Source: Gammaproteobacteria bacterium (GTDB taxonomy: Bacteria > Pseudomonadota > Gammaproteobacteria > Pseudomonadales > Azotimanducaceae). Taken from it: DNA of 64,000 bases. The notes beneath the pieces are model-generated. The model saw nothing but the letters and a program-made list of their open reading frames with translations, made no database searches and was not told the DNA's origin. This document shows, in pieces, positions 52,643 through 64,000 of this stretch (position 1 is its first letter; each line of letters opens with the position of its first letter). The stretch lies in the NCBI GenBank assembly GCA_009841615.1, contig VXLL01000027.1, positions 1,223 to 65,222 of the forward strand, read 5' to 3'. The translations under genes and the position numbers were made by a program.

Positions 52643-52819
52643 GCTAATGTATTTGCTAGTGTTGGTGATTTGAATTCGTTGAAGTCTGGTCACGCTCAAA
52701 CTATTGCTGGTCGCGTTGTTGATTATGCTTGTTTGAGATCGGAGTCATCAGATTTCGCATCCCTCGTTGTAGTGTAAATTTAGATAATTGGTTCATCGAA
52801 ATTGAGAGAATTTCAAACT

Positions 52820-54085
52820 ATGAGAATCGGATTGGGTACGCTCGCATTGCTTTGTTCGATTACTTTCTTTAGCAACTCCCATGAAGCTTCTGTGCCTTCG
52901 TTGGGTACGCCGACGTTAGACAACGCTGATGAAGAGATGCTCCTTGAGCCAAGTAAATTGCGTGCGCGCATCGAAGCAGGCGAAGCAGAGGAGGTGTTGA
53001 CACTCGCCACGGAAGTCATCTCAGAAATCGAAGAGAATCGTACAAGGTATGACGAAGCGTTGGTTAAACCACTCATCGTGTTCGGTGACGCGAGCCGAGA
53101 GTTGGGGGAATACATCGACGCGATTGAAGCTTATGAACGTGCCCGACAGATTTCGAGACTAACAAATGGACTAAATTCGATTGAGCAAGTCGAAGCAGTA
53201 CACAGAGAGGCTGAAACCTACTTTGAGCTTGGACACATCGGGGACGCAAACGATAGCTATGAGTACATCTTCTCGATTTACAACCAGCAATTCGAACCGT
53301 TTTCCGTGGACTTGTTGCCAACCATCTTCATGCTTGCAGATTGGTACGTGTTGATTTACAACGTTTTTGCAGCTCGCGGTTTGTATGAATATGCCACCGA
53401 AATTGTGGATCACCATTTAGAACGGACTAGTCCTGAAAACATTCGAGCACTACAGGGACTAGCAGACACCTATCGTCTAGAACGTTTTCGACCTCTAAGT
53501 GCTCTGGGTCAAATCCAAGCCCGCATACCTGTGTTGTATTGGGCGGATGAGACGCCGTTCAGATATTTTGCGAAAGTAAACGACTTTGAAACCGGTGAGG
53601 ATGCTCTAGTCGAGCTCGTCAAAATCGAGCTCGAACGATCTGAGAGCACGCCAGAGTCCGTTGCGCGGGCAAAACTCCAGCTCGCCGATTGGTTTACACT
53701 GTTTGAACAGAACGAGCGCGCAGTGGTCATTTACCAAGACATATTAGCAACGTTTGAGGACACCGAAACAGAGTTTTTTACAAGTGAATTTAGGGAAGCG
53801 GTACCACTATTTCTTCCTTTGTCCACAAGTCCTGATCCCCAACCACTGCGATTGGAGTCTCCTCCCGCGACCGGAGAAGTTGGATTTACGGTTGATGTCG
53901 ACGAAACCGGCCGTGTTATTCAAGTACAATTAGACTTTGCGCAACCGCAAGGCGATTTCGTCGAGGAATTCGAGAAGTCTTTGAAGAATGCGATCTATCG
54001 GCCTCGCTTTGAAGATGGGAAGCCGATGCCGCGTACGAATGTCAAGGTGCATCACAGGTATATCTTCTTTCCCAAAGCTGAATAG
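52820..54085 (+). CDS. Secreted alpha-helical-repeat (TPR-like) protein ending in a TonB_C domain; first gene of the 52.8-64 kb operon
   Basis: Signal peptide MRIGLGTLALLCSITFFSNSHEA. The helical region has TPR-like spacing. The C-terminal TonB_C-like unit is GEVGFTVDVDETGRVIQVQLDFAQP...FEKSLKNAIYRPRFEDGKP. Confidence 0.6.
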   Translation: MRIGLGTLALLCSITFFSNSHEASVPSLGTPTLDNADEEMLLEPSKLRARIEAGEAEEVLTLATEVISEIEENRTRYDEALVKPLIVFGDASRELGEYIDAIEAYERARQISRLTNGLNSIEQVEAVHREAETYFELGHIGDANDSYEYIFSIYNQQFEPFSVDLLPTIFMLADWYVLIYNVFAARGLYEYATEIVDHHLERTSPENIRALQGLADTYRLERFRPLSALGQIQARIPVLYWADETPFRYFAKVNDFETGEDALVELVKIELERSESTPESVARAKLQLADWFTLFEQNERAVVIYQDILATFEDTETEFFTSEFREAVPLFLPLSTSPDPQPLRLESPPATGEVGFTVDVDETGRVIQVQLDFAQPQGDFVEEFEKSLKNAIYRPRFEDGKPMPRTNVKVHHRYIFFPKAE

Positions 54086-54205
54086 GGCGAACGCGAAAGG
54101 CGATTGGACAAAAAAATAAAATATTTACAGTACGTAGAACTTGGAACTTTGTGGAACACGCAATTGTCTACTATGAGGTACCACCAAGAGCGAGGAGGTC
54201 AGAAC

Positions 54206-55345
54206 ATGGACAAACGAATTGACACTCTACTGGAGTATGGAAGCTTAAAGTTCATAAGTTCCTTTTTTCGCCGATTTTTGGAATTCGTTTTAGGGGCTAA
54301 GGTTGTCGTTTTAGTAATCGCTATTTTTGGGCTTAGTGGGTGCATGTCTAGTGTGCCTTCCACTTTTCCTGACATCCAATTACCGTCTCCACAGTCCTCC
54401 ACTGGTAGTCCAACTTCCTCCTCCTCATCGGGACAACCGTCGGGGAACCCGATGCCCCAACCAAATAGTGGTTCGCAATCGTCGTTGCCGACACCATCTT
54501 TACCAACTCCTGGTTCTCCGAGTTCTGGAACCCCCTCGTTACCGAGACCGCCTTCCCCCATGCCTTCGCCAGATTCCTCCGACGGTACTCCATCAACACC
54601 GTCATTGCCGTCGCCCGAAAGTCAGGGCAGCCCCAATTCCGGAGAGTCTAATGATGGAACGACGACACCAGAATCGAGCTCGGGCAACGAAGGACAACAA
54701 GATGGCCAAGACGGAACAATGGGCGATAACATCGAACTACCTCCAGGTGACCTTCAATTTCCTGTGGGCGACCCCAATGGACAACAAGGTGGCGAACAAT
54801 CCAATGATGGTGGCGGAGTGATGATGCCAGAAGATGAAGGTGAGGGAGCTGGAGGTTGGGAAACCAGTAACCAGTTAGAGCCGCAACCCGGCGATTCCGA
54901 AGAAGGAGGTAACACCGACGAAGAGGAAGATGAAAGTGCAGTTGCCAGTGGGTCTGGTGAAGATGCAATGCAAGAAGTTCTCGGGGATCTTGACGGCGAG
55001 ATTATGAATGAACGAAACGCAGCGAACACTAGGGCTAATGATGAGATCGCTGAAGCCGGTTCTTTTGAAACTGAAACTGACGAGCCGGAATCGGGAGTTC
55101 TGGACGGAGATACCGATGGCGGTGATGAGACTGCGGACGAAGAACAACAAGCCGGGACGGGAGCAGGAGAACAAGACGAACCATTACTTCCCGAATCTCG
55201 ACAAGGTGTTGCCGACACACCCGATGCAACAGATAAGAGTGTAGTGGCGCGCCAGCTCAAAGAAGCAGCGTTAGCGGAGGAAGACCCTGAGCTGAAAAAG
55301 AAACTTTGGGAAGAGTATGAAAACTATGTGGACGGATTGAAATGA
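54206..55345 (+). CDS. Lipoprotein with a Pro/Ser-rich linker and a long Asp/Glu/Gly-rich disordered region
   Basis: ATG 54206 is preceded by GAGGAGG. The lipobox is FGLSGC. There is roughly 100 aa of S/P-rich sequence, then roughly 230 aa rich in D/E/G. The stop overlaps the next start (ATGA). Confidence 0.6.
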   Translation: MDKRIDTLLEYGSLKFISSFFRRFLEFVLGAKVVVLVIAIFGLSGCMSSVPSTFPDIQLPSPQSSTGSPTSSSSSGQPSGNPMPQPNSGSQSSLPTPSLPTPGSPSSGTPSLPRPPSPMPSPDSSDGTPSTPSLPSPESQGSPNSGESNDGTTTPESSSGNEGQQDGQDGTMGDNIELPPGDLQFPVGDPNGQQGGEQSNDGGGVMMPEDEGEGAGGWETSNQLEPQPGDSEEGGNTDEEEDESAVASGSGEDAMQEVLGDLDGEIMNERNAANTRANDEIAEAGSFETETDEPESGVLDGDTDGGDETADEEQQAGTGAGEQDEPLLPESRQGVADTPDATDKSVVARQLKEAALAEEDPELKKKLWEEYENYVDGLK

Positions 55346-56589
55346 AATTTCTGCGCATTTCTCTTCTTTCGCTTGTGGTGCTGAGCATGGTCGGGTGCTC
55401 GACAGTCATCAAGCGTCGAGTTGACACAACACCACCGAAACAATCTACTAGAGCCATTCCGGAAGAACAATTGTTGGACGTCGGTATCGTAGTGTTCGAT
55501 TCCAACGTCCCGGAGCTCTACGATGACATTATTGAGGCAAACATTACTCCTGAAGTCCGGCGAGCTGAGGCGAATTGGATCGTCAATTACGCCAAAGAGT
55601 ATCTCCAAGCCACCGGTAATTGGGGTGCCGTGCGCGCGATTCCCAAACCTAGCTTGGCAATCGATGTTCACATTACGGGAGACATTCTACATTCCGACGG
55701 CGAGCTTCAGGTGTTAAAGATCAAAGCTGCTGATTCCCGTGGAGTCGTTTGGTTTGATGACATTTTTGAGACTCGCGCCAGTAAATATTCGTACGATTCA
55801 GACGTGCCCCGTGACATTGATCCCTTTCAGACCAACTATCGAGAACTGTCTGACAGACTGCTCGAGTACCAAGAGTCCTTAACCCCAGAAGAAATTCTTG
55901 AAATTCGAAGTACCACTTTGGTGCGGTACGGCAAAGCAGTAGTTCCAGAAGCATTTGGCGACTATGTCGTAAAAGAAAGAAACGGTCGATTCCGATTGAA
56001 CAGATTGCCGACTCCGGATGATCCAACTATGTCCAACGTTCGACAGTTACTTGAAAGGGAACTTGTCATTATTGACACTTTGGACGAGAGTTTTGATCGG
56101 TTTGCAAACGACATGGACGAACCTTACTGGTTCTGGCGCGAAGGATCTTATCCGTTAGCGATTGCCTTTCGTGAGGAGCGTCAGCGTTCAAAAACTCGTA
56201 TAGCTTCTGGGATTATTCTCGCGATCGTCGGCGCTTACTTTCAACGACAAACCGGTGGGTTTCGAGAGATTGGCGGTTACACGGCTGTTATCGGTGGCGG
56301 GACAGAAATTCTCGGAGGCGTTGGAGACCGTGCTAATGCAAAAAATCATCAAGAAATGTTGCACGAAATCGGTGTAAGCGCGTCGCAACAGATTGGTCCA
56401 ATAACAATTGAGCTAGAAAATGCGACGATTTCGTTACAAGGAACGTTTGAAGAGCAGTACCAAAAAGCCATTGAGTACATTCGCGAGACTTACCAGAAAG
56501 AGCTAGGCAACATCCTAGACCCCGATAGTTCTACGGATGAATCAACTGGAGACGAAACCACTGACGAATTCATCCAGGACCCCGAATGA
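55342..56589 (+). CDS. Predicted lipoprotein, function unknown
   Basis: N-terminus MKFLRISLLSLVVLSMVGCS has a lipobox-like motif. 415 aa, with a Gly-rich hydrophobic segment near residue 300 (IASGIILAIVGAYF...GGYTAVIGGGTEILGGVG). It is translationally coupled to its neighbours. Confidence 0.6.
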   Translation: MKFLRISLLSLVVLSMVGCSTVIKRRVDTTPPKQSTRAIPEEQLLDVGIVVFDSNVPELYDDIIEANITPEVRRAEANWIVNYAKEYLQATGNWGAVRAIPKPSLAIDVHITGDILHSDGELQVLKIKAADSRGVVWFDDIFETRASKYSYDSDVPRDIDPFQTNYRELSDRLLEYQESLTPEEILEIRSTTLVRYGKAVVPEAFGDYVVKERNGRFRLNRLPTPDDPTMSNVRQLLERELVIIDTLDESFDRFANDMDEPYWFWREGSYPLAIAFREERQRSKTRIASGIILAIVGAYFQRQTGGFREIGGYTAVIGGGTEILGGVGDRANAKNHQEMLHEIGVSASQQIGPITIELENATISLQGTFEEQYQKAIEYIRETYQKELGNILDPDSSTDESTGDETTDEFIQDPE

Positions 56590-58090
56590 CGAACACCAAC
56601 CGGTGGTTCTGCAACCGGTTCAACCTAAGCTCGCGGGTAGTACAAGTACCAAGCGCTTTCGCTTTGTAAAACCAAACCGCAGCCAGCTTAATATGCTGGC
56701 TGTGCTTACTCTACTAGGCATCGCTATCGCCTTTTGGTTTTTAGCACCAAGAGATTGGATTACACCAAACAACGATAGCTTGTCGACCGCGAACAATGGA
56801 AGTCTTCGCGACAGGAGTAATCAAACAACTGGCGAACCGACCACTCCTTTTAAAGATGCGCAACAAGAACGCGCGCGTGAAGCTGCACAGACCGTCTTCG
56901 ATGAGTTTGTCCAGTATCAAGACGAAATAGAGAGAAATCAATATGGGACAGAGGAGCACTCAGAGCGGGAGAGCGCAATCTACGAACGCGCGAACAAAGC
57001 CGATTTACTGTTTTCTGAACGACGGTTTGATGAAGCCATTAGTGAGTATGAACAAGCATTACAAGATATAAAGCAACTGCTTGACGACATGAACACTGAA
57101 TTTAACCATTGGGTTGAACAAGGTACAGAAGCTCTGCAGGATCGAGATTTCGAGATTTCATTGGAAGCGTGGTCGCGCGCTCAGGCGATTAAACCACTGG
57201 ATCAAGACGTGCAAGCTAAATTAGCTCGGGTGCAACTATTACCCAAAGTTAACGAACTCATCCGCGAGAGTGAACGGGCAAGGATAAAGGAAGACTGGGT
57301 TCAAGCGCTTGAGCATCTGAATGAAGTCACGAAACTCGATCCCCTTACACTTGGGATAACAGACCTGAGCGAACAAATCTTAGAACGCATTAAATCTCAA
57401 GATCTCAAAGATGCACTCACTGACGGTCATGAGCAATTAGCCGGCAGCAACTTCGATTCTGCGGAACAAATATTCGAAGAAATTCTCGTGGATTATCCCG
57501 AAAATACCGCGGCCCAAACCGGTTTGCAACAAGTTGAAAGAGCACGACTAGCCGCGAAAATAGAAGCCTTAAAAGTTGAGGCACGAGAAAAAGAAGACCA
57601 ACTAGATATGCGCGGTGCGCTGAAAATTTACGATGAAGCTTTAGCTCTCGATGACTCGTTGCAATTTGCTGTTGAGGGTAGAGAGAGAGTGTTTGAAATA
57701 ATCTCTGTCGTGAACGACATGAATGACACATTGCAGGATCCACATTCCTTATCTGCGGATGACGCTTACGAAGAAGCGAAAGAAACCTTAGAAACTGCAC
57801 AGAGTCATCGTGGTCATAGCGGAGAATATGATAAGTTGTTACAGAGCTTCGCTGACTTGGTGAGCTATGCAGGGACACTTCTTCCGGTAGTATTGATCTC
57901 AGATGAGATGACTGAAGTAACTCTTACTACCAGGCAGCGTATCGGATCTTTTAAGCGACATGAGTTGATGCTACGACCGGGCCGTTACACGCTACACGGG
58001 ACCCGGGACGGGTGGGTCGACATTCGTAAACCTTTCATCGTTGAACAAGACATGGATCCGGTGTCGATCTTTTGTGAAGAACAAATCTAA
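56537..58090 (+). CDS. Bitopic membrane protein with TPR-like/coiled-coil repeats and a PEGA-like C-terminal beta domain
   Basis: TM anchor LNMLAVLTLLGIAIAFWFLAP. Repeated helical units follow (AISEYEQALQDIKQL, LEAWSRAQAIKPLDQDVQAKLA, ALEHLNEVTKLDP, AEQIFEEILVDYPENTAAQTGL). The C-terminus is ...MLRPGRYTLHGTRDGWVDIRKPFIV. The start is uncertain: ATG 56537 overlaps the upstream gene by 53 nt, and GTG 56603 is the alternative. Confidence 0.55.
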   Translation: MNQLETKPLTNSSRTPNDEHQPVVLQPVQPKLAGSTSTKRFRFVKPNRSQLNMLAVLTLLGIAIAFWFLAPRDWITPNNDSLSTANNGSLRDRSNQTTGEPTTPFKDAQQERAREAAQTVFDEFVQYQDEIERNQYGTEEHSERESAIYERANKADLLFSERRFDEAISEYEQALQDIKQLLDDMNTEFNHWVEQGTEALQDRDFEISLEAWSRAQAIKPLDQDVQAKLARVQLLPKVNELIRESERARIKEDWVQALEHLNEVTKLDPLTLGITDLSEQILERIKSQDLKDALTDGHEQLAGSNFDSAEQIFEEILVDYPENTAAQTGLQQVERARLAAKIEALKVEAREKEDQLDMRGALKIYDEALALDDSLQFAVEGRERVFEIISVVNDMNDTLQDPHSLSADDAYEEAKETLETAQSHRGHSGEYDKLLQSFADLVSYAGTLLPVVLISDEMTEVTLTTRQRIGSFKRHELMLRPGRYTLHGTRDGWVDIRKPFIVEQDMDPVSIFCEEQI

Positions 58091-58103: not shown

Positions 58104-60170
58104 ATGACTGATGGCGGTGTCCAAAACACTTTACTACAACCTGATGTCTTTGAACCTTCCCGATCTCGTCCCCCCCGTCGTACTCGAATAGTCTCTTGGG
58201 TTCAGGTAATCGCCGCGGTCCTCACGCTCTTTGTAGTTTTCGCCCTTTGGTTTGTTCTTACCGCCAAGTCGGTAAAACTCGAACCCAATGTTGTAGACGC
58301 AGAAATCAAAATTCTCGACGGATTACGGTTGAATACAGGAGAACGTTACTTACTCCGGCCAGGTGAGTACCGAGTAAGCGGTCAAGCGTCCGGTTATTAC
58401 GAAGTAGATGAAATCATTGAAGTCGGGCGACAAAGCCAGCAAACAATTCCCATAAATTTTGAGCGTTTACCGGGTTTGGTACACATCACTGCATCGCCAG
58501 TCGATGCTACAGTCTCGTTGAACGGAGCTCCACTAGGACAGGCACCGATTTCGCACGATGTCCCTGCGGGACCAGCGACGCTTTTATTTTCAGCACCGCG
58601 ATATCAAAGTGACACTATCACTTTCGATGTGGAAGGTATGGCTCGCGAACAGAGCCAACACCTCGACTTAAAACCAAATTGGGGCGATATCACAATCCCC
58701 ACTCAACCTGAAGGGGCGACCATCCTAGTCGACGGTAAAGACTCTGGTTTCACGACACCCGGTCCTGCAGAAATATTGGCTGGAGAGCACGAAATATCAG
58801 TCAAACTCCAAGGTTACGCGCTGTGGACGGATCTAATTTTCGTGACAGCCGGCGAACAGCGTACATTGGACCCTGTCCAGCTACACCCGGTGCAAGGAAA
58901 AATTTCGATTGTTTCAACGCCTCCTTCTGCGAGTGTCACGATCAATGGTAAATTTCAAGGTACGACTCCACTACCTGATGTACAAGTGGAACCAAATGCA
59001 GACTTACAAGTCGAAGTGTTACTTGCAGGTTATCACGTCGATAAACGAACTATTTCCTTGAACCCAGGACAAGAAACTAATCTGACGATCAAATTGGAAG
59101 AAGAGACTGGTGAAGTAGTAATGATTACAGATCCTGAAGACGTCGAGTTTTATATAGATGGTAAGCGCGTCCAACTACCAGAGGATCGAAAGATTACACT
59201 ACACGCTATCAATCATCATTTTGAAGTTAAAAAGGAAGGTTATGCTGGATGGGCAGGGGAAATTTCAGTGCAACCAGGACAAGCTCAAGTAAAGAGAATT
59301 CGTCTACTTACCGAAGCCGAAGCTGAAATTAAATATTTGGAACAGAACCGTACCACCGTTGACGGACAGGAACTCGTGCTCTTGCAACCCACGCCGATCC
59401 GAATGGGGGCTTCGAGATCACAACCTGGAAGACGAGCAAATGAGCCCTTTCGTACTACGAATCTCAATCGAATGTACTATCTGGGCAAGTATGAAGTCAC
59501 CAATGAAGACTTTCGCAAATTTATTCCTGTACATGACTCAGAAGACTACCACGGCCACAATTTGAACAAAGACCAACAACCTGTCGTAAACGTCACTTGG
59601 AATGAGGCAGCATTGTACTGTAATTACTTATCAGAGAAACAGGGGTTAGAACCGTTTTACGAAGTGCGCGGTGCTAAGGTCGTTGGTTATAGACCTGATT
59701 CCATTGGGTATCGACTACCGTCGGAGGCAGAGTGGAGCTGGGCAGCACGGCATATGGAAGGTCAAGCCGAACTGATGCACTTCCCTTGGGGTACGGATTT
59801 TCCGCCTCCAGAAGATCGCGTGGGCAACTTTGCTGACGCAGCCGCACAGCATGTAGTGGGCCGGATCATCTTTGAATACAACGACAATTTCACCGTGTCC
59901 GCGGAAGTAGGTTCATTTCGTCCAAATTCTAAGGGTATTCACGACCTAGGTGGTAACGTTGCAGAATGGGTACATGATTTTTATGACATTCCGGCAGTAA
60001 ACAGCACCGTCGACAACTTAGGACCGAGCCAAGGACAATATCGAGTGATGCGAGGTTCAAGTTACTTAGATGGCACCATCACTCCCTTACGATTGTCATA
60101 TCGCAATTATGGGACCGACGGAAGTGCATATGTGGGGTTCAGAATTGCTCGTTACGCGAAAAAGGAGTAG
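58104..60170 (+). CDS. Bitopic membrane protein with multiple PEGA-like domains and a C-terminal FGE-sulfatase (SUMF1-like) domain lacking the catalytic Cys pair
   Basis: TM anchor VSWVQVIAAVLTLFVVFALWFVLTA. PEGA-like repeats are present (HITASPVDATVSLNGAPLGQAP...; ITIPTQPEGATILVDGKDSGFTTP...AGEHEISVKLQGY; ISIVSTPPSASVTINGKFQGTTP...; VMITDPEDVEFYIDGKRV...). FGE-domain motifs are VTWNEAALYCNYLSEKQG, YRLPSEAEWSWAAR, GNVAEWVHDFY, RVMRGSSY and GFRIARY. Confidence 0.7.
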   Translation: MTDGGVQNTLLQPDVFEPSRSRPPRRTRIVSWVQVIAAVLTLFVVFALWFVLTAKSVKLEPNVVDAEIKILDGLRLNTGERYLLRPGEYRVSGQASGYYEVDEIIEVGRQSQQTIPINFERLPGLVHITASPVDATVSLNGAPLGQAPISHDVPAGPATLLFSAPRYQSDTITFDVEGMAREQSQHLDLKPNWGDITIPTQPEGATILVDGKDSGFTTPGPAEILAGEHEISVKLQGYALWTDLIFVTAGEQRTLDPVQLHPVQGKISIVSTPPSASVTINGKFQGTTPLPDVQVEPNADLQVEVLLAGYHVDKRTISLNPGQETNLTIKLEEETGEVVMITDPEDVEFYIDGKRVQLPEDRKITLHAINHHFEVKKEGYAGWAGEISVQPGQAQVKRIRLLTEAEAEIKYLEQNRTTVDGQELVLLQPTPIRMGASRSQPGRRANEPFRTTNLNRMYYLGKYEVTNEDFRKFIPVHDSEDYHGHNLNKDQQPVVNVTWNEAALYCNYLSEKQGLEPFYEVRGAKVVGYRPDSIGYRLPSEAEWSWAARHMEGQAELMHFPWGTDFPPPEDRVGNFADAAAQHVVGRIIFEYNDNFTVSAEVGSFRPNSKGIHDLGGNVAEWVHDFYDIPAVNSTVDNLGPSQGQYRVMRGSSYLDGTITPLRLSYRNYGTDGSAYVGFRIARYAKKE

Positions 60171-60171
60171 G

Positions 60172-60576
60172 GTGCAAGCTACACACTCCAAGCCCGCCAA
60201 CACGCCTACATTGATACTTAGGATAGCAATGATCCTCGCTGTTCTAGTGTTTGGCTATCACTGTATTGGACAAGAAGATAACGTTGAAGAATCTGAGACG
60301 ACCGAACCGGCTGATAGTGTCTCGGAAGAAACTCCCGAAGACACAGCAGCAGAGGAATCCGAAAACGACTTAGATGATTCCGAAAACAGCACATCCCAGA
60401 GTTCTGAAGAGGACTCAAGCTCTACCCAAGACATCAATTCAGAAGAAGAGACGACTAACGAAGATACCCCCAGCACTGAAGACACGGAAGAGTCGGTTGA
60501 CGCTGACTATGAAGATTTCGTTCCCACGGAAAATTTATCGGAAGACGTAGATATACCTTTTCCCGTTGATATTTGA
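60172..60576 (+). CDS. Small secreted, extremely acidic (D/E/S/T-rich) protein
   Basis: The hydrophobic signal-like segment ILRIAMILAVLVFGYHCIGQ is followed by about 100 aa dominated by E, D, S and T. The start is GTG 60172 (directly after the upstream stop) or ATG 60229. The longer ORF from 60070 overlaps the upstream gene. Confidence 0.5.
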   Translation: MQATHSKPANTPTLILRIAMILAVLVFGYHCIGQEDNVEESETTEPADSVSEETPEDTAAEESENDLDDSENSTSQSSEEDSSSTQDINSEEETTNEDTPSTEDTEESVDADYEDFVPTENLSEDVDIPFPVDI

Positions 60577-60591
60577 TACTAAGGACCTAGT

Positions 60592-61395
60592 TTGACTAAA
60601 CGCTTTACCACCAACTTCTTTACGCAACTGTTAGCACTGGTTGTGGCAATATTGCTCGTACATACGATGTACGAAACTTTGATTCGGCCTAAAGCTAACG
60701 CAATTCTTGAAGAGCGCAAGGAAGCCATTGAGAATGAAGTAGAGGGATACGAGATTAAGCGGTCAGTGTACGTTACTCTCAAAGATTATGAGCAAGAAAT
60801 TTGTTTCATTCTCATGTTCTGGGCGTTTGCCATCATGATTACGAAGGGGATTAGCGTACGGGGGCAACATCGTCTCACCAAGCAGGAATTGGTGAAGATC
60901 GTGGAGGGCACAAGCGTGTTGCCAGAAGATGCTCGCGTGTATATGCGATCAATTCAGTCGCTACCGCAAAAAGCCCAAGATTCGTTACTCCCTCGAGCAG
61001 CCATGACCGCGTTGCAGCGTTTTGAATCTACTCAAGAGATTCAACATGCTTCCGAAGCGGTGCGGACGGTATGCGAAGGCGAGGCAGATAGATTAGATAG
61101 CGAGCTCGCCATGATTCGGTACATTTCTTGGGCTATTCCGTCCATTGGGTTCATCGGAACCGTACGTGGTATCGGAGGAGCACTCGGTCTCGCTCATGAA
61201 GTGTTCCAACAAGGAACGATTACAGGAGTTACCGAAAACTTGGGTATTGCGTTCAATTCAACACTTGTCGCCCTAGTGATCAGTATTGTGATTATGTTCT
61301 TCGTGCATCAACTTCAACGATACCAAGAAGAGATGGTAATCGACATCGAGTCATGGTGCGACGACAACTTGCTTCGACATCTACAGGTACGCTAA
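60592..61395 (+). CDS. MotA/TolQ/ExbB-family proton-channel protein
   Basis: Two N-terminal TM helices, a cytoplasmic helical insert, then the family signature region IRYISWAIPSIGFIGTVRGIGGALG...GVTENLGIAFNSTLVALVISIVIMFFVHQL. Confidence 0.75.
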   Translation: MTKRFTTNFFTQLLALVVAILLVHTMYETLIRPKANAILEERKEAIENEVEGYEIKRSVYVTLKDYEQEICFILMFWAFAIMITKGISVRGQHRLTKQELVKIVEGTSVLPEDARVYMRSIQSLPQKAQDSLLPRAAMTALQRFESTQEIQHASEAVRTVCEGEADRLDSELAMIRYISWAIPSIGFIGTVRGIGGALGLAHEVFQQGTITGVTENLGIAFNSTLVALVISIVIMFFVHQLQRYQEEMVIDIESWCDDNLLRHLQVR

Positions 61396-61396
61396 C

Positions 61397-62677
61397 ATGT
61401 GGATTCTAGAACTCGACGATACAGAAATCCGCCTATGTAAGGACGGCGAAGTCGTCATTACAGAACCCGGCATTGCTTGGGCAGAAGTTAAAGAACTAAA
61501 GTTCGGTGAGGCGGCATTGAGGGTTGCTAAGCTTTATCCCGCCCGAGTTCATACGCAGTATTGGAATCTAATGGATCAAAGTCACGTTGAACCCAAAGGA
61601 TTTGCTGTTGAGACTCAGGCCGACCTGGTCTATCAACAATTGCTTCACATCAAAGCACAAGCGAAGCTTGGGGACAAGGATGAAGTCTTAATCGTAGTAC
61701 CAAGCGACCGTACTGAGCAACAATTAAGGCTACTGTATGGAATAATATTGAAAGCAGGCTATAACGTTGTTGATTTTGTTGACTTGGGAGTCGCGGGCGC
61801 ACTTGCATCTGAAGGTCATGGTGCCCTTGCGTATGTCAGCGTCGGCATGCAACGTACCGTAATCACGCATCTAAAAGCTTCTGACAGAGTTGTGAGAGAA
61901 AAGGTGTCCGTAACACCGCAACTAGGTGTCTTACCGTTATGCAACACATGGATTCGTATGGTAGCGGAAAAGTTTCTAGCGAGTTCTCGATTTGACCCAC
62001 GTAAATTCGCGGAAACCGAGCAGCAAATTTTCGATCAAATTCTAGTGTTTGTTCAATCTCCTAAAAACAATACTGCCATCGAAACTGAGTACCGTGGCTT
62101 TACGCGTCAAGTAGAGATTTCTAAAGCTGAAGTTATAGAGGTCGCGAAAGACCGATATGCATCCGTGCTCAGTCGCATCAACACGGAAGAAGACCTTGTG
62201 TTATCGAACACAACGCATACGCTACCTGGACTGACCGAAGCGCTGACTCAGAACGGACGCAAGTATTTTGTCAGTACGTTTCAAAGTGTGGTCGACGAGC
62301 TTACGGCTTCCTTAGGTGATGATTTAGCTACTGGTCAGTGCACGTTACATACTAGCTTAACCAAGCAAGGGACAAGCGCCCCATTTGTCGAAAAACACAA
62401 CGATACACTCGCTGAGACTCCAGTGCATCCTACACATATACTGCACCAAGCAACTGCTTATCCGATTGGGTCAGAGTTTACCGTTAATAGTGGTGAGTTA
62501 GACGAATCTCTGCTGTTCACGCTGGAACACCGTTCTCGAGGTACGGCGTTAAAGATTGGTACTTCGGCACCGATCTCGGTAAATGGCGCGAGAGTACATT
62601 CCGAACAAATTGTTCAACCGGGTGATCGTATTTCTGTGCTTGATCGCAACTATGAATTGATCATGGTTCAAGGTTGA
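61397..62677 (+). CDS. Soluble protein with a degenerate Hsp70/actin-fold-like N-terminal domain and an FHA-like C-terminal domain
   Basis: VLIVVPSDRTEQQLRLLYGIILKAGYNVVDFVDLGVAGALA parallels the Hsp70 sequence VITVPAYFND.QRQATKDAG.IAGL.V.RIINEPTAAALA. The phosphate-binding motifs are not conserved (WILELDDTEIRL, YVSVGMQRTVIT). The C-terminus ...LKIGTSAPISVNGARVHSEQIVQPGDRISVLDRNYELIMV is FHA-like. Confidence 0.45.
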   Translation: MWILELDDTEIRLCKDGEVVITEPGIAWAEVKELKFGEAALRVAKLYPARVHTQYWNLMDQSHVEPKGFAVETQADLVYQQLLHIKAQAKLGDKDEVLIVVPSDRTEQQLRLLYGIILKAGYNVVDFVDLGVAGALASEGHGALAYVSVGMQRTVITHLKASDRVVREKVSVTPQLGVLPLCNTWIRMVAEKFLASSRFDPRKFAETEQQIFDQILVFVQSPKNNTAIETEYRGFTRQVEISKAEVIEVAKDRYASVLSRINTEEDLVLSNTTHTLPGLTEALTQNGRKYFVSTFQSVVDELTASLGDDLATGQCTLHTSLTKQGTSAPFVEKHNDTLAETPVHPTHILHQATAYPIGSEFTVNSGELDESLLFTLEHRSRGTALKIGTSAPISVNGARVHSEQIVQPGDRISVLDRNYELIMVQG

Positions 62678-62681
62678 AGAA

Positions 62682-63773
62682 GTGAAACGTCCTCGCAAAC
62701 GTCAGATCAGCGTTTTTCTGTTGTCGTTTCTCGACATCATGGCGGGCGGCTTCGGCGCGGTGGTGCTCATATTTTTGATCATAGACCACAACACAATGGA
62801 AGTAATCGAATCAGCGAATCAAGATCAGCTTGCTGAGGTTCGCTTGTTGGACATGAGGAAAGAAGAGGGCGAAAAGGATTTAGCTGTGCTACGTGAAAAA
62901 GTCGCCCAGTTGAAGCTTGAGATTGCGGATGCAAGAGAAAAGATCGAGAACATCCAACTAGAGGTGGATGAAAAAGAAGAAGAAGTTAAAGAAGTCGAAC
63001 GCCAGGCCCTAGATCAGAGCGAAACTGAAAAGAAATTACAGAGCGAGATCGAAACAAAAGAAGAGGAACTTGAAGATATCAAACAGAATCTCGACGATGT
63101 GCGACCAGATGTTTTGGAAATCGCTGGCGCAGGCGATCGACAATACCTCACAGGTCTATTCTTGGGCGGGAACCGCATTCTGATAGCAGTGGACAATTCT
63201 GCCAGTATGCTGCACAACAATATCGTTAATGTCGCAATACTACGAAACAGGGAAAAAGAAGCACAATTACAGTCGAAGAAATGGATCCGAGCTATTGATT
63301 CCGTTGAATGGTTTGTAGCCAAGGCACCTATTTCAAGTCAGTTGCAGATCGCGACTTTTAACACTGAAGCAAAGTTGATCGTCGACGATGGTGATTGGCA
63401 TGATGCGACAGATGCACAAGCATTGCAAGACGCGATCAAGGTCTTACGCGAGACACCACCTGCTCATGGTACGGATCTCAAAGGTTTGTTCGAACTGATT
63501 GCGAAAATGAGTCCTATACCTGACAACGTGTTTCTTATTACCGACGGGTTTCCCACAACAGATGACAGTAATGCCAGTAGACGCCGAACGACGATCGATG
63601 GACAAGCTCGGTTCGAATTGTTTCGGCGAGCGATGAGGGAACTTCCGTCAGGGATTACAGTAAATTCGATCCTACTTCCCTTTGAGGGAGATCCGTTGGC
63701 GGCGGGTGCCTATTGGACTCTGTCGCACAATACTGGAGGGACCTTCATGACTCCGTCGAAGGACTGGCCATGA
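62682..63773 (+). CDS. ExbD/TolR-like TM anchor (conserved Asp) fused to a coiled coil and a vWA domain with an intact MIDAS motif
   Basis: The N-terminus KRQISVFLLSFLDIMAGGFGAVVLIFLII resembles the ExbD/TolR pattern (I..TPLIDV..VLLIFF) and includes an Asp (codon at 62733-62735). A coiled coil of roughly 100 aa follows. The vWA motifs are ILIAVDNSASM (DxSxS at 63192-63206), AHGTDL and VFLITDGFPT. Confidence 0.65.
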   Translation: MKRPRKRQISVFLLSFLDIMAGGFGAVVLIFLIIDHNTMEVIESANQDQLAEVRLLDMRKEEGEKDLAVLREKVAQLKLEIADAREKIENIQLEVDEKEEEVKEVERQALDQSETEKKLQSEIETKEEELEDIKQNLDDVRPDVLEIAGAGDRQYLTGLFLGGNRILIAVDNSASMLHNNIVNVAILRNREKEAQLQSKKWIRAIDSVEWFVAKAPISSQLQIATFNTEAKLIVDDGDWHDATDAQALQDAIKVLRETPPAHGTDLKGLFELIAKMSPIPDNVFLITDGFPTTDDSNASRRRTTIDGQARFELFRRAMRELPSGITVNSILLPFEGDPLAAGAYWTLSHNTGGTFMTPSKDWP

Positions 63774-64000
63774 GACGAGCGCGCGAAGGAAGCGAAATTA
63801 GCTTAGCTTTTCTTGACGTGATCTGTTGCGGATTTGGGGCAATCATTCTATTACTAATGATCACCAAGCAGAATTTGCCAACCATACTTGAACCCTCCCT
63901 AGAAGACATTGTGGCTGAGCTCGCAAAGCGGCAGGAGGCGATTAATGAAATTTTGGGTGAAACCGAAAGACTCGAACGCACCAAAGTCGAGACCGAAGCC
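63770..64000 (+). CDS. Second ExbD/TolR-like TM-anchor protein (paralog of 62682-63773), 3'-truncated by the window edge
   Basis: This ORF is not in the ORF track because it is open at the window end. ATG 63770 overlaps the upstream stop (ATGA). The translation is MRRAREGSEISLAFLDVICCGFGAIILLLMITKQ...AELAKRQEAINEILGETERLERTKVETEA. It shows the same Asp-containing TM motif (Asp codon 63815-63817) followed by a coiled coil. Confidence 0.6.
   Translation, partial: MRRAREGSEISLAFLDVICCGFGAIILLLMITKQNLPTILEPSLEDIVAELAKRQEAINEILGETERLERTKVETEA

Follow-up and report, generated by a model that had tools for sequence, protein, structure and literature searches.

Only a few systems are known to use proton motors of the 5:2 type: flagella, Ton, Tol-Pal, gliding together with the type IX secretion system (T9SS), and Zorya. 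In nearly all of these, the inner axle is a short anchor and a separate protein passes the force on. Here we describe an operon at the end of a 64,000-nucleotide stretch of contig VXLL01000027.1 from a gammaproteobacterium (the window), in which two adjacent genes, I and J, encode putative axle proteins that seemingly continue, by fusion, into a coiled coil that spans the periplasm and bears heads for metal-dependent binding. Together, proteins I and J are probably the inner axle, a heterodimer, of an inner-membrane motor of the 5:2 type that is driven by protons, with the fused coil and heads carrying force outward; we put the probability of this reading at about 0.6. If true, it would represent a distinct route by which the energy of the proton-motive force (PMF) reaches the outer envelope; the arrangement is found in marine and symbiotic bacteria that are abundant.

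The closest described class, TPH-vWA, comprises transmembrane (TM)-tethered vWA proteins that mostly occur as heterologous pairs, in close linkage with tolQ homologues and without tolR or exbD (Mol Biol Evol 2025;42:msaf138, section 8 and Fig. 4c,d; PMC12204202). Its members, found in Proteobacteria and Verrucomicrobia, have a trans-pore helix resembling that of TolR/ExbD, and AlphaFold 3 places the conserved Asp of this helix inside the Thr ring (PMC12204202). The window pair resembles this class in its Asp helix, its adjacent heterologous arrangement, its vWA domain, its link to a tolQ-like gene, the Thr residues of that gene product and the absence of tolR or exbD nearby; the assignment of the window family to TPH-vWA rests on this match of every described feature. 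In the window, a further gene, H, is inserted between the channel gene G and I. The paper describes no sulfatase/PEGA protein, the co-conserved partners of the window operon being identified here. Our reading of I and J coincides with the published hypothesis, and the evidence supports this locus as a further example. Not yet in the literature are the conserved partners, especially a protein with a TonB C-terminal domain (CTD), a protein combining a formylglycine-generating enzyme (FGE) fold with PEGA domains, and the invariant acidic peptide of protein F; a literature search for the combination of PEGA/FGE-sulfatase, MotA and vWA returned nothing besides PMC12204202. With the addition of lipoproteins and an Hsp70-like/FHA protein, the parts list of the operon extends the published account.

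Genes G, H, I and J form a same-strand run with tight junctions at the end of the window, and the stop codon of I is shared with the start codon of J in an ATGA overlap. They belong to an operon of 12 genes, labelled A-L, in which the orthologues of K and L fall past the window end. The initial annotation of this stretch had placed the MotA/ExbB gene directly upstream of I; this proved incorrect, as H (426 amino acids, aa) separates G from I. In some other lineages, G abuts I. The features that carry the argument are as follows:

60592..61395, + strand: protein G, 267 aa; channel subunit of the MotA/TolQ/ExbB family (PF01618)
62682..63773, + strand: protein I, 363 aa, GTG start; basic tail, Asp-bearing TM helix, coiled coil, vWA domain
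62733..62735, + strand: Asp18 codon of I, candidate proton-binding residue (from homologue conservation and hhalign)
62820..63098, + strand: residues 47-139 of I, predicted continuous helix (from AlphaFold2 (AF2) secondary structure and periodicity)
63174..63746, + strand: residues 165-355 of I, vWA domain (from Pfam VWA_2, Foldseek and column conservation)
63770..64000 (window end), + strand: protein J, first 77 codons only; basic tail, Asp16 TM helix, start of the coil
63815-63817, + strand: Asp16 codon of J, in the TM helix

The N-terminus of I reads MKRPRKRQISVFLLSFLDIMAGGFGAVVLIFLII, and J opens with MRRAREGSEISLAFLDVICCGFGAIILLLMI. Both begin with a basic segment followed by a single TM helix that bears an Asp (D18 in I and D16 in J), as the initial annotation had quoted them. 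This Asp is conserved in 228 of the 231 I homologues with complete N-termini, in every J orthologue (52/52) and in at least 90% of 50 diverse sequences; the exceptions among the I homologues are two sequences with Ser and one with an aberrant start. The FLD....GFGA helix is almost invariant over the I family, which comprises 1033 clusters at 50% identity (E ≤ 1e-3), and the conservation of this predicted helix is more than chance. F16, D18 and G25 are invariant or nearly so in 50 diverse I-family sequences, as are S173, D288, W362 and P363 further along the protein. Ahead of the helix, I and J carry net charges of +3.1 and +1.5, respectively, and behind it charges of -1.8 and -2.7, which indicates an N-in/C-out orientation. 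This bias would make the coiled coil and the vWA domain periplasmic and put the Asp near the cytoplasmic end of the helix, the same layout as in ExbD, TolR and MotB.

The proposed kinship with ExbD and TolR held in part: HMMER gave no match, whereas a profile-profile comparison gave a weak one that was better than that of a composition-matched generic helix. At E ≤ 10, the Pfam ExbD profile matched neither I nor J nor the N-termini of 58 family members, and a local hidden Markov model (HMM) built from ExbD and TolR found none in I or J. Searching all PDB sequences with an N-terminal HMM of the family retrieved no ExbD, TolR or MotB chain, the only match being a chance one to NDUFB4. In the hhalign comparison to ExbD/TolR N-termini, SVFLLSFLDIMA aligns with EINVTPFIDVML, Asp on Asp, with a score of 15.8 (P = 0.0027; probability 11%, 12 columns). 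Column-shuffled controls score 7.8 ± 1.8 on average, and 1 of 200 attains 15.8. A search with the ExbD+TolR profile for diverse references returned enterobacterial ExbD only. The helix of I and J is closer in sequence to the ExbD/TolR helix than a composition-matched helix is, and lies outside the Pfam-defined ExbD/TolR family. Three findings had been named beforehand as ones that would speak against an axle, namely a TM Asp not conserved among orthologs, a cytoplasmic vWA domain, and N-termini that match ExbD/TolR profiles no better than generic TM helices do; none of the three was obtained.

I and J thus share with ExbD and TolR a basic tail, a single helix, an Asp near the predicted cytoplasmic face and an N-in/C-out arrangement, but lack the profile match and the periplasmic domain, whose place is taken by a vWA head on a coiled coil of ~95-100 residues. 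In I, the compact periplasmic domain of ExbD/TolR is replaced by a 93-residue helix and the vWA domain. The AF2 model of I, a monomer built on 41 homologues, shows a single helix at residues 47-139 and an alpha/beta vWA fold at residues 165-355 with a predicted local distance difference test (pLDDT) score above 90. The helix, which would measure ~14 nm if straight, has a hydrophobic 3.5-residue periodicity above that of all shuffled controls (2000/2000), and the heptad signal is strong in I and J alike. The expected succession of a coiled coil and a vWA domain with intact metal ion-dependent adhesion site (MIDAS) was confirmed for I. A further difference, in this case from MotB and PomB, is the absence of a C-terminal OmpA-like peptidoglycan-binding domain; neither I nor J has a match to an OmpA-family Pfam profile.

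Pfam VWA_2 matches residues 166-289 of I with 32.5 bits (cut-off 27 bits), and the best PDB matches of the head in Foldseek are the vWA domains of TFIIH p44/Ssl1, ITIH1, CMG2/ANTXR2, BatB and CLCA1. All MIDAS motifs are present, DNSAS at exactly the positions reported earlier (63192-63206), HGTD at 63465-63476 and ITDG at 63537-63548, providing the residues D171/S173/S175, T264 and D288. Because these columns are conserved across 50 diverse members (at least 90% for D171, S175 and G263, in addition to S173 and D288 above), the putative metal site is a feature of the I family, lost in a few divergent members. The C-terminus of I (63756-63770) reads ...PSKDWP, and the W362/P363 pair at its very end is invariant in 50 diverse homologues, which suggests that the DWP terminus may be a docking peptide. 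An exact look-up of window protein I returned no record, its NCBIfam search gave coiled-coil noise only, and the database and cluster names of the family ("VWA domain-containing", "FtsB", "phasin", "SlyX") carry no information or are spurious.

The C-terminal domain of J falls outside the window. In a relative whose I is 82% identical, J has 328 aa, aligns with all 77 window residues and consists of a TM helix, a coiled coil and a divergent vWA-like domain with a DTSPS motif. D16, D158/S160/S162 and D256 are invariant in J orthologues (n = 52), the position of the vWA Thr being ambiguous. Pairwise BLAST of I against J detects similarity confined to the N-terminal 76 residues, whereas hhalign of the two family profiles aligns 299 columns with a probability of 99.3% (E = 1.5e-20) and the DxSxSM motifs in register. 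Because the profiles align over TM helix, coil and vWA domain while BLAST sees the N-terminus only, I and J are, judged from their sequences, old paralogues bearing different vWA heads.

A genome scan covering one genome per species, with a 14-sequence alignment as query, yields at least 586 loci. Genes I and J are always found next to each other and in that order, as seen in 81 loci, five of them distant. The TM motifs of I and J co-vary per locus; in locus L084, both are FMDCICCGFGAV. The spacers between TM helix and MIDAS, typically 156 residues in I and 144 in J, also co-vary (r = 0.82, n = 81, the independent lineages being few), with values of 137/136, 144/137 and 163/147 in divergent lineages and one outlier of 159/140. 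Since TM motifs and spacers co-vary within loci, the pair fits an arrangement in which the two helices would share one pore and the two arms would form one coiled coil. AglR-AglQ-AglS of Myxococcus xanthus likewise comprises one TolQ-like channel gene and two different TolR-like genes. The parallel with G/I/J, drawn in the initial annotation, is an analogy only: AglQ and AglS are both small proteins of the TolR type that have no coiled coil and no vWA domain, and the window operon has no Glt-type partners.

Protein G is, like ExbB and TolQ, a member of Pfam family PF01618 (E = 3.5e-14, 53.1 bits against a cut-off of 22.9), and its best solved relative is E. coli TolQ. Both pore threonines are kept: T190 of G (GFIGTVRG) aligns with TolQ T145, and T224 (AFNST) with TolQ T178, both segments being invariant in 75 G sequences (window G and 74 orthologues). 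In known motors, this Thr pair surrounds the Asp of TolR/ExbD (PMC12204202). If I and J do not fill this pore, they might be TolA/TonB-type transducers or accessories that act outside the G pentamer or on another motor, the true TolR/ExbD axle being encoded elsewhere. Such a role would account for N-termini without an ExbD/TolR HMM match, would be in keeping with the TonB CTD protein in the operon, and has a precedent in another vWA family that is reported to act peripherally on a motor (PMC12204202). However, neither helix shows the SHLS/His motif (SxxxH...L...S), the sole His (H36) lying after the helix, and both have an invariant Asp near the predicted cytoplasmic end. In addition, the ExbD/TolR HMM, run against 12,584 open reading frame fragments of 88 loci and the window, found no tolR or exbD within 10 kb, and co-varying helices of paralogues fit a dimeric axle. 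We regard transducers of this type as unlikely.

A third possibility is that I and J are ordinary vWA scaffolds or adhesins of the BatA/BatB type whose only tie to G is the shared operon, with the TM Asp serving oligomerization or folding and not proton coupling. Bat proteins share with I and J a membrane-anchored vWA domain with MIDAS, the structural matches of the I head include BatB, databases name the proteins just 'VWA domain-containing protein', and in one distant locus (L087) the pair stands without a nearby G. Yet Bat operons contain MoxR and DUF58 genes and lack MotA/ExbB, and Bat proteins have neither the Asp helix nor the long coil; in the window operon, no MoxR ATPase or DUF58 protein is found among the 12 genes. 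A charged residue is near-absolutely conserved in a single-pass helix, and G has no other axle gene nearby. Gene order was counted in 53 loci of at least 19 kb with genes in order, and G is linked to I and J in 53/53, the linkage extending across phyla. We consider the scaffold reading improbable.

The analysis shows the domain content, the conservation, a topology signal, the shared gene order and the lack of a nearby ExbD/TolR gene; the G-I-J assembly, its proton coupling, its ligand and its cellular role we infer as follows. A pentamer of the TolQ-like G would form the outer ring, giving an assembly of G5:I1:J1, and the Asp helices of I (D18) and J (D16) would sit in a pore lined by T190 and T224 of G. 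Proton flow would turn or shift the G ring relative to the I/J axle. The paired coiled coil of I and J, ~14 nm long, would cross the periplasm, tipped by two different vWA heads, whose MIDAS metal sites may grip an acidic ligand on a partner in the outer envelope. PMF-derived force or rotation could thereby be passed to a complex of the co-conserved products E, A, D, F, C, K and L, while H would regulate or scaffold the motor from the cytoplasmic side. Such an axle would differ from those of the ExbD/TolR and TonB/TolA systems in being heterodimeric and in having the force transmitter fused to it.

Several points weigh against an I/J axle. At the level of HMMER, homology of the I and J N-termini to ExbD, TolR or MotB was not detected, and the profile-profile match to ExbD/TolR has a probability of only 11% over 12 columns and was obtained with a narrow reference set (enterobacterial ExbD and E. 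coli TolR). In two I homologues, Ser replaces the Asp, and in the AF2 monomer of I the TM helix has low confidence. G might yet work with a canonical TolR or ExbD from another part of the genome. In locus L087, where no gene G lies within 10 kb, the MIDAS motif of I is lost (EASGGM). With regard to the published class, the Idiomarina loihiensis seed was compared by description only, and the paper reports no experiment for any member and gives the function as unknown (PMC12204202).

The remaining genes of the operon in the window are:

52802..54085, + strand: protein A, 427 aa; signal peptide, TPR, TonB C-terminal domain; first operon gene
54104..55345, + strand: protein B, 413 aa; one predicted TM helix, without known family
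55342..56589, + strand: protein C, 415 aa; lipoprotein with lipobox LSMVGC, without known family
56537..58090, + strand: protein D, 517 aa; TM helix, then periplasmic TPR region
58104..60170, + strand: protein E, 688 aa; N-terminal TM helix, PEGA x4, FGE-sulfatase-like domain (Pfam)
60070..60576, + strand: protein F; small, signal/TM-anchored acidic protein with conserved C-terminal peptide
61397..62677, + strand: protein H, 426 aa; fold resembling the Hsp70 nucleotide-binding domain and C-terminal FHA-like beta-sandwich, without TM helix

The order of the operon is highly conserved in the 53 loci. Genes G, H, I and J are present in order in all of them, D and E in 52 each, and C, K and L in 50 each; B is found in 42 and A in 36. 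More tentatively, and with odds that we would set somewhat below even, the whole 12-gene operon may encode one trans-envelope machine, a third Ton/Tol-like system with I and J as its drive shaft. The axle would then reach the outer envelope, where the MIDAS heads might clamp the acidic peptide of F or another partner; A and the PorK/GldK-like E would form the outer assembly, and H would gate the motor. If true, the distribution of such a machine would be wide, covering marine Gammaproteobacteria of the OM60/NOR5 type, sponge symbionts and Verrucomicrobiota.

Protein E is the most widely co-conserved partner of G, I and J across phyla. It matches the GldK model TIGR03525 with an E value of 1.2e-26, far under the cut-off. 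By eye, its FGE-like domain has no Cys where true FGEs have their catalytic cysteines, and because of this E is probably non-catalytic. The GldL-GldM motor is similar in that its axle has a long periplasmic arm directed toward an outer-membrane-associated complex, and in that an FGE-sulfatase-fold protein is co-encoded (GldK/PorK there, E here). In contrast, GldL lies outside PF01618, and GldM has neither a vWA domain nor such a coiled coil. Unlike GldK/PorK, E is TM-anchored with PEGA domains and is not a lipoprotein, and the operon contains no other T9SS genes.

Protein A has Pfam matches to TPR_12 and, weakly, to TonB_C; its family profile matches TonB2 in the PDB (2k9k, E = 4.5e-15), along with a dozen further CTDs of TonB proteins. 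A is secreted and has a true TonB C-terminal domain, without a TonB-type membrane anchor. The true start of F is probably near 60172. Its C-terminal peptide, F.PSE.ISED..V.FPVDI-COOH, occurs in 67/74 loci and in the distant loci L086 and L088; for F of the window, the peptide reads ...F.PTE.LSEDVDIPFPVDI, with the end ...SEDVDIPFPVDI. This peptide is a candidate ligand of the MIDAS heads or of the TPR proteins. B and D are single-pass membrane proteins. K and L are lipoproteins of 216 and 230 aa (L001:12113-13467) that follow 3' of J in 50/53 loci; neither has sequence relatives in the PDB, and a PWFEPR motif and several invariant Cys mark the second lipoprotein after J. The AF2 model of H (pLDDT 89.6) matches Hsp70/DnaK/BiP in Foldseek with E~1e-17, and distant H homologues are annotated FHA or Yop-YscD_cpl (PF00498/PF16697). 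H itself, unannotated in databases, is found in the window clade and in Verrucomicrobiota and is absent from some lineages; the model is consistent with a lineage-variable accessory that is probably a cytoplasmic regulator or scaffold.

The gene content also bears on a role in defence. A Zorya-like anti-phage system would sense envelope perturbation through a MotAB-like motor that bears a long coiled-coil tail, and the window proteins do have long coiled coils on a 5:2-type motor and weak PADLOC matches to ZorA models (G, E = 4.5e-4; J, E = 3.6e-3). These matches, however, are limited to the generic MotA domain or the coiled coil. The operon has no effectors of the ZorC/ZorD type or ZorE, PADLOC calls no defence system, and the cluster is a stable chromosomal set of 12 genes beside housekeeping genes, its order kept across families, rather than a variable defence island. 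We judge a defence function highly improbable. On gene content, the Zorya-like and BatA/B-like readings were both rejected.

The best 80 of the at least 586 loci belong to Pseudomonadales of the Halieaceae/Luminiphilus/Congregibacter type and to sponge-associated metagenome-assembled genomes. Cultured carriers include HTCC2080, Kineobactrum sediminis, Congregibacter variabilis and Pseudohalioglobus sediminis, and the axle hypothesis is therefore directly testable. The E-G-I-J core is also found on distant contigs. A Puniceicoccaceae (Verrucomicrobiota) contig carries E ... G, an H-like gene, I and J; L085 and L086 have D-E-F-G-I-J without H; and on one further distant contig the H-like gene is annotated FHA. 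Locus L087 (8482-12080) consists of an H-like gene, I and J, and the 10 kb around it contain neither a MotA/ExbB nor a PEGA/FGE gene. J of this locus retains DTSGSM, and the neighbouring gene on the opposite strand encodes a protein of ~14,900 aa.

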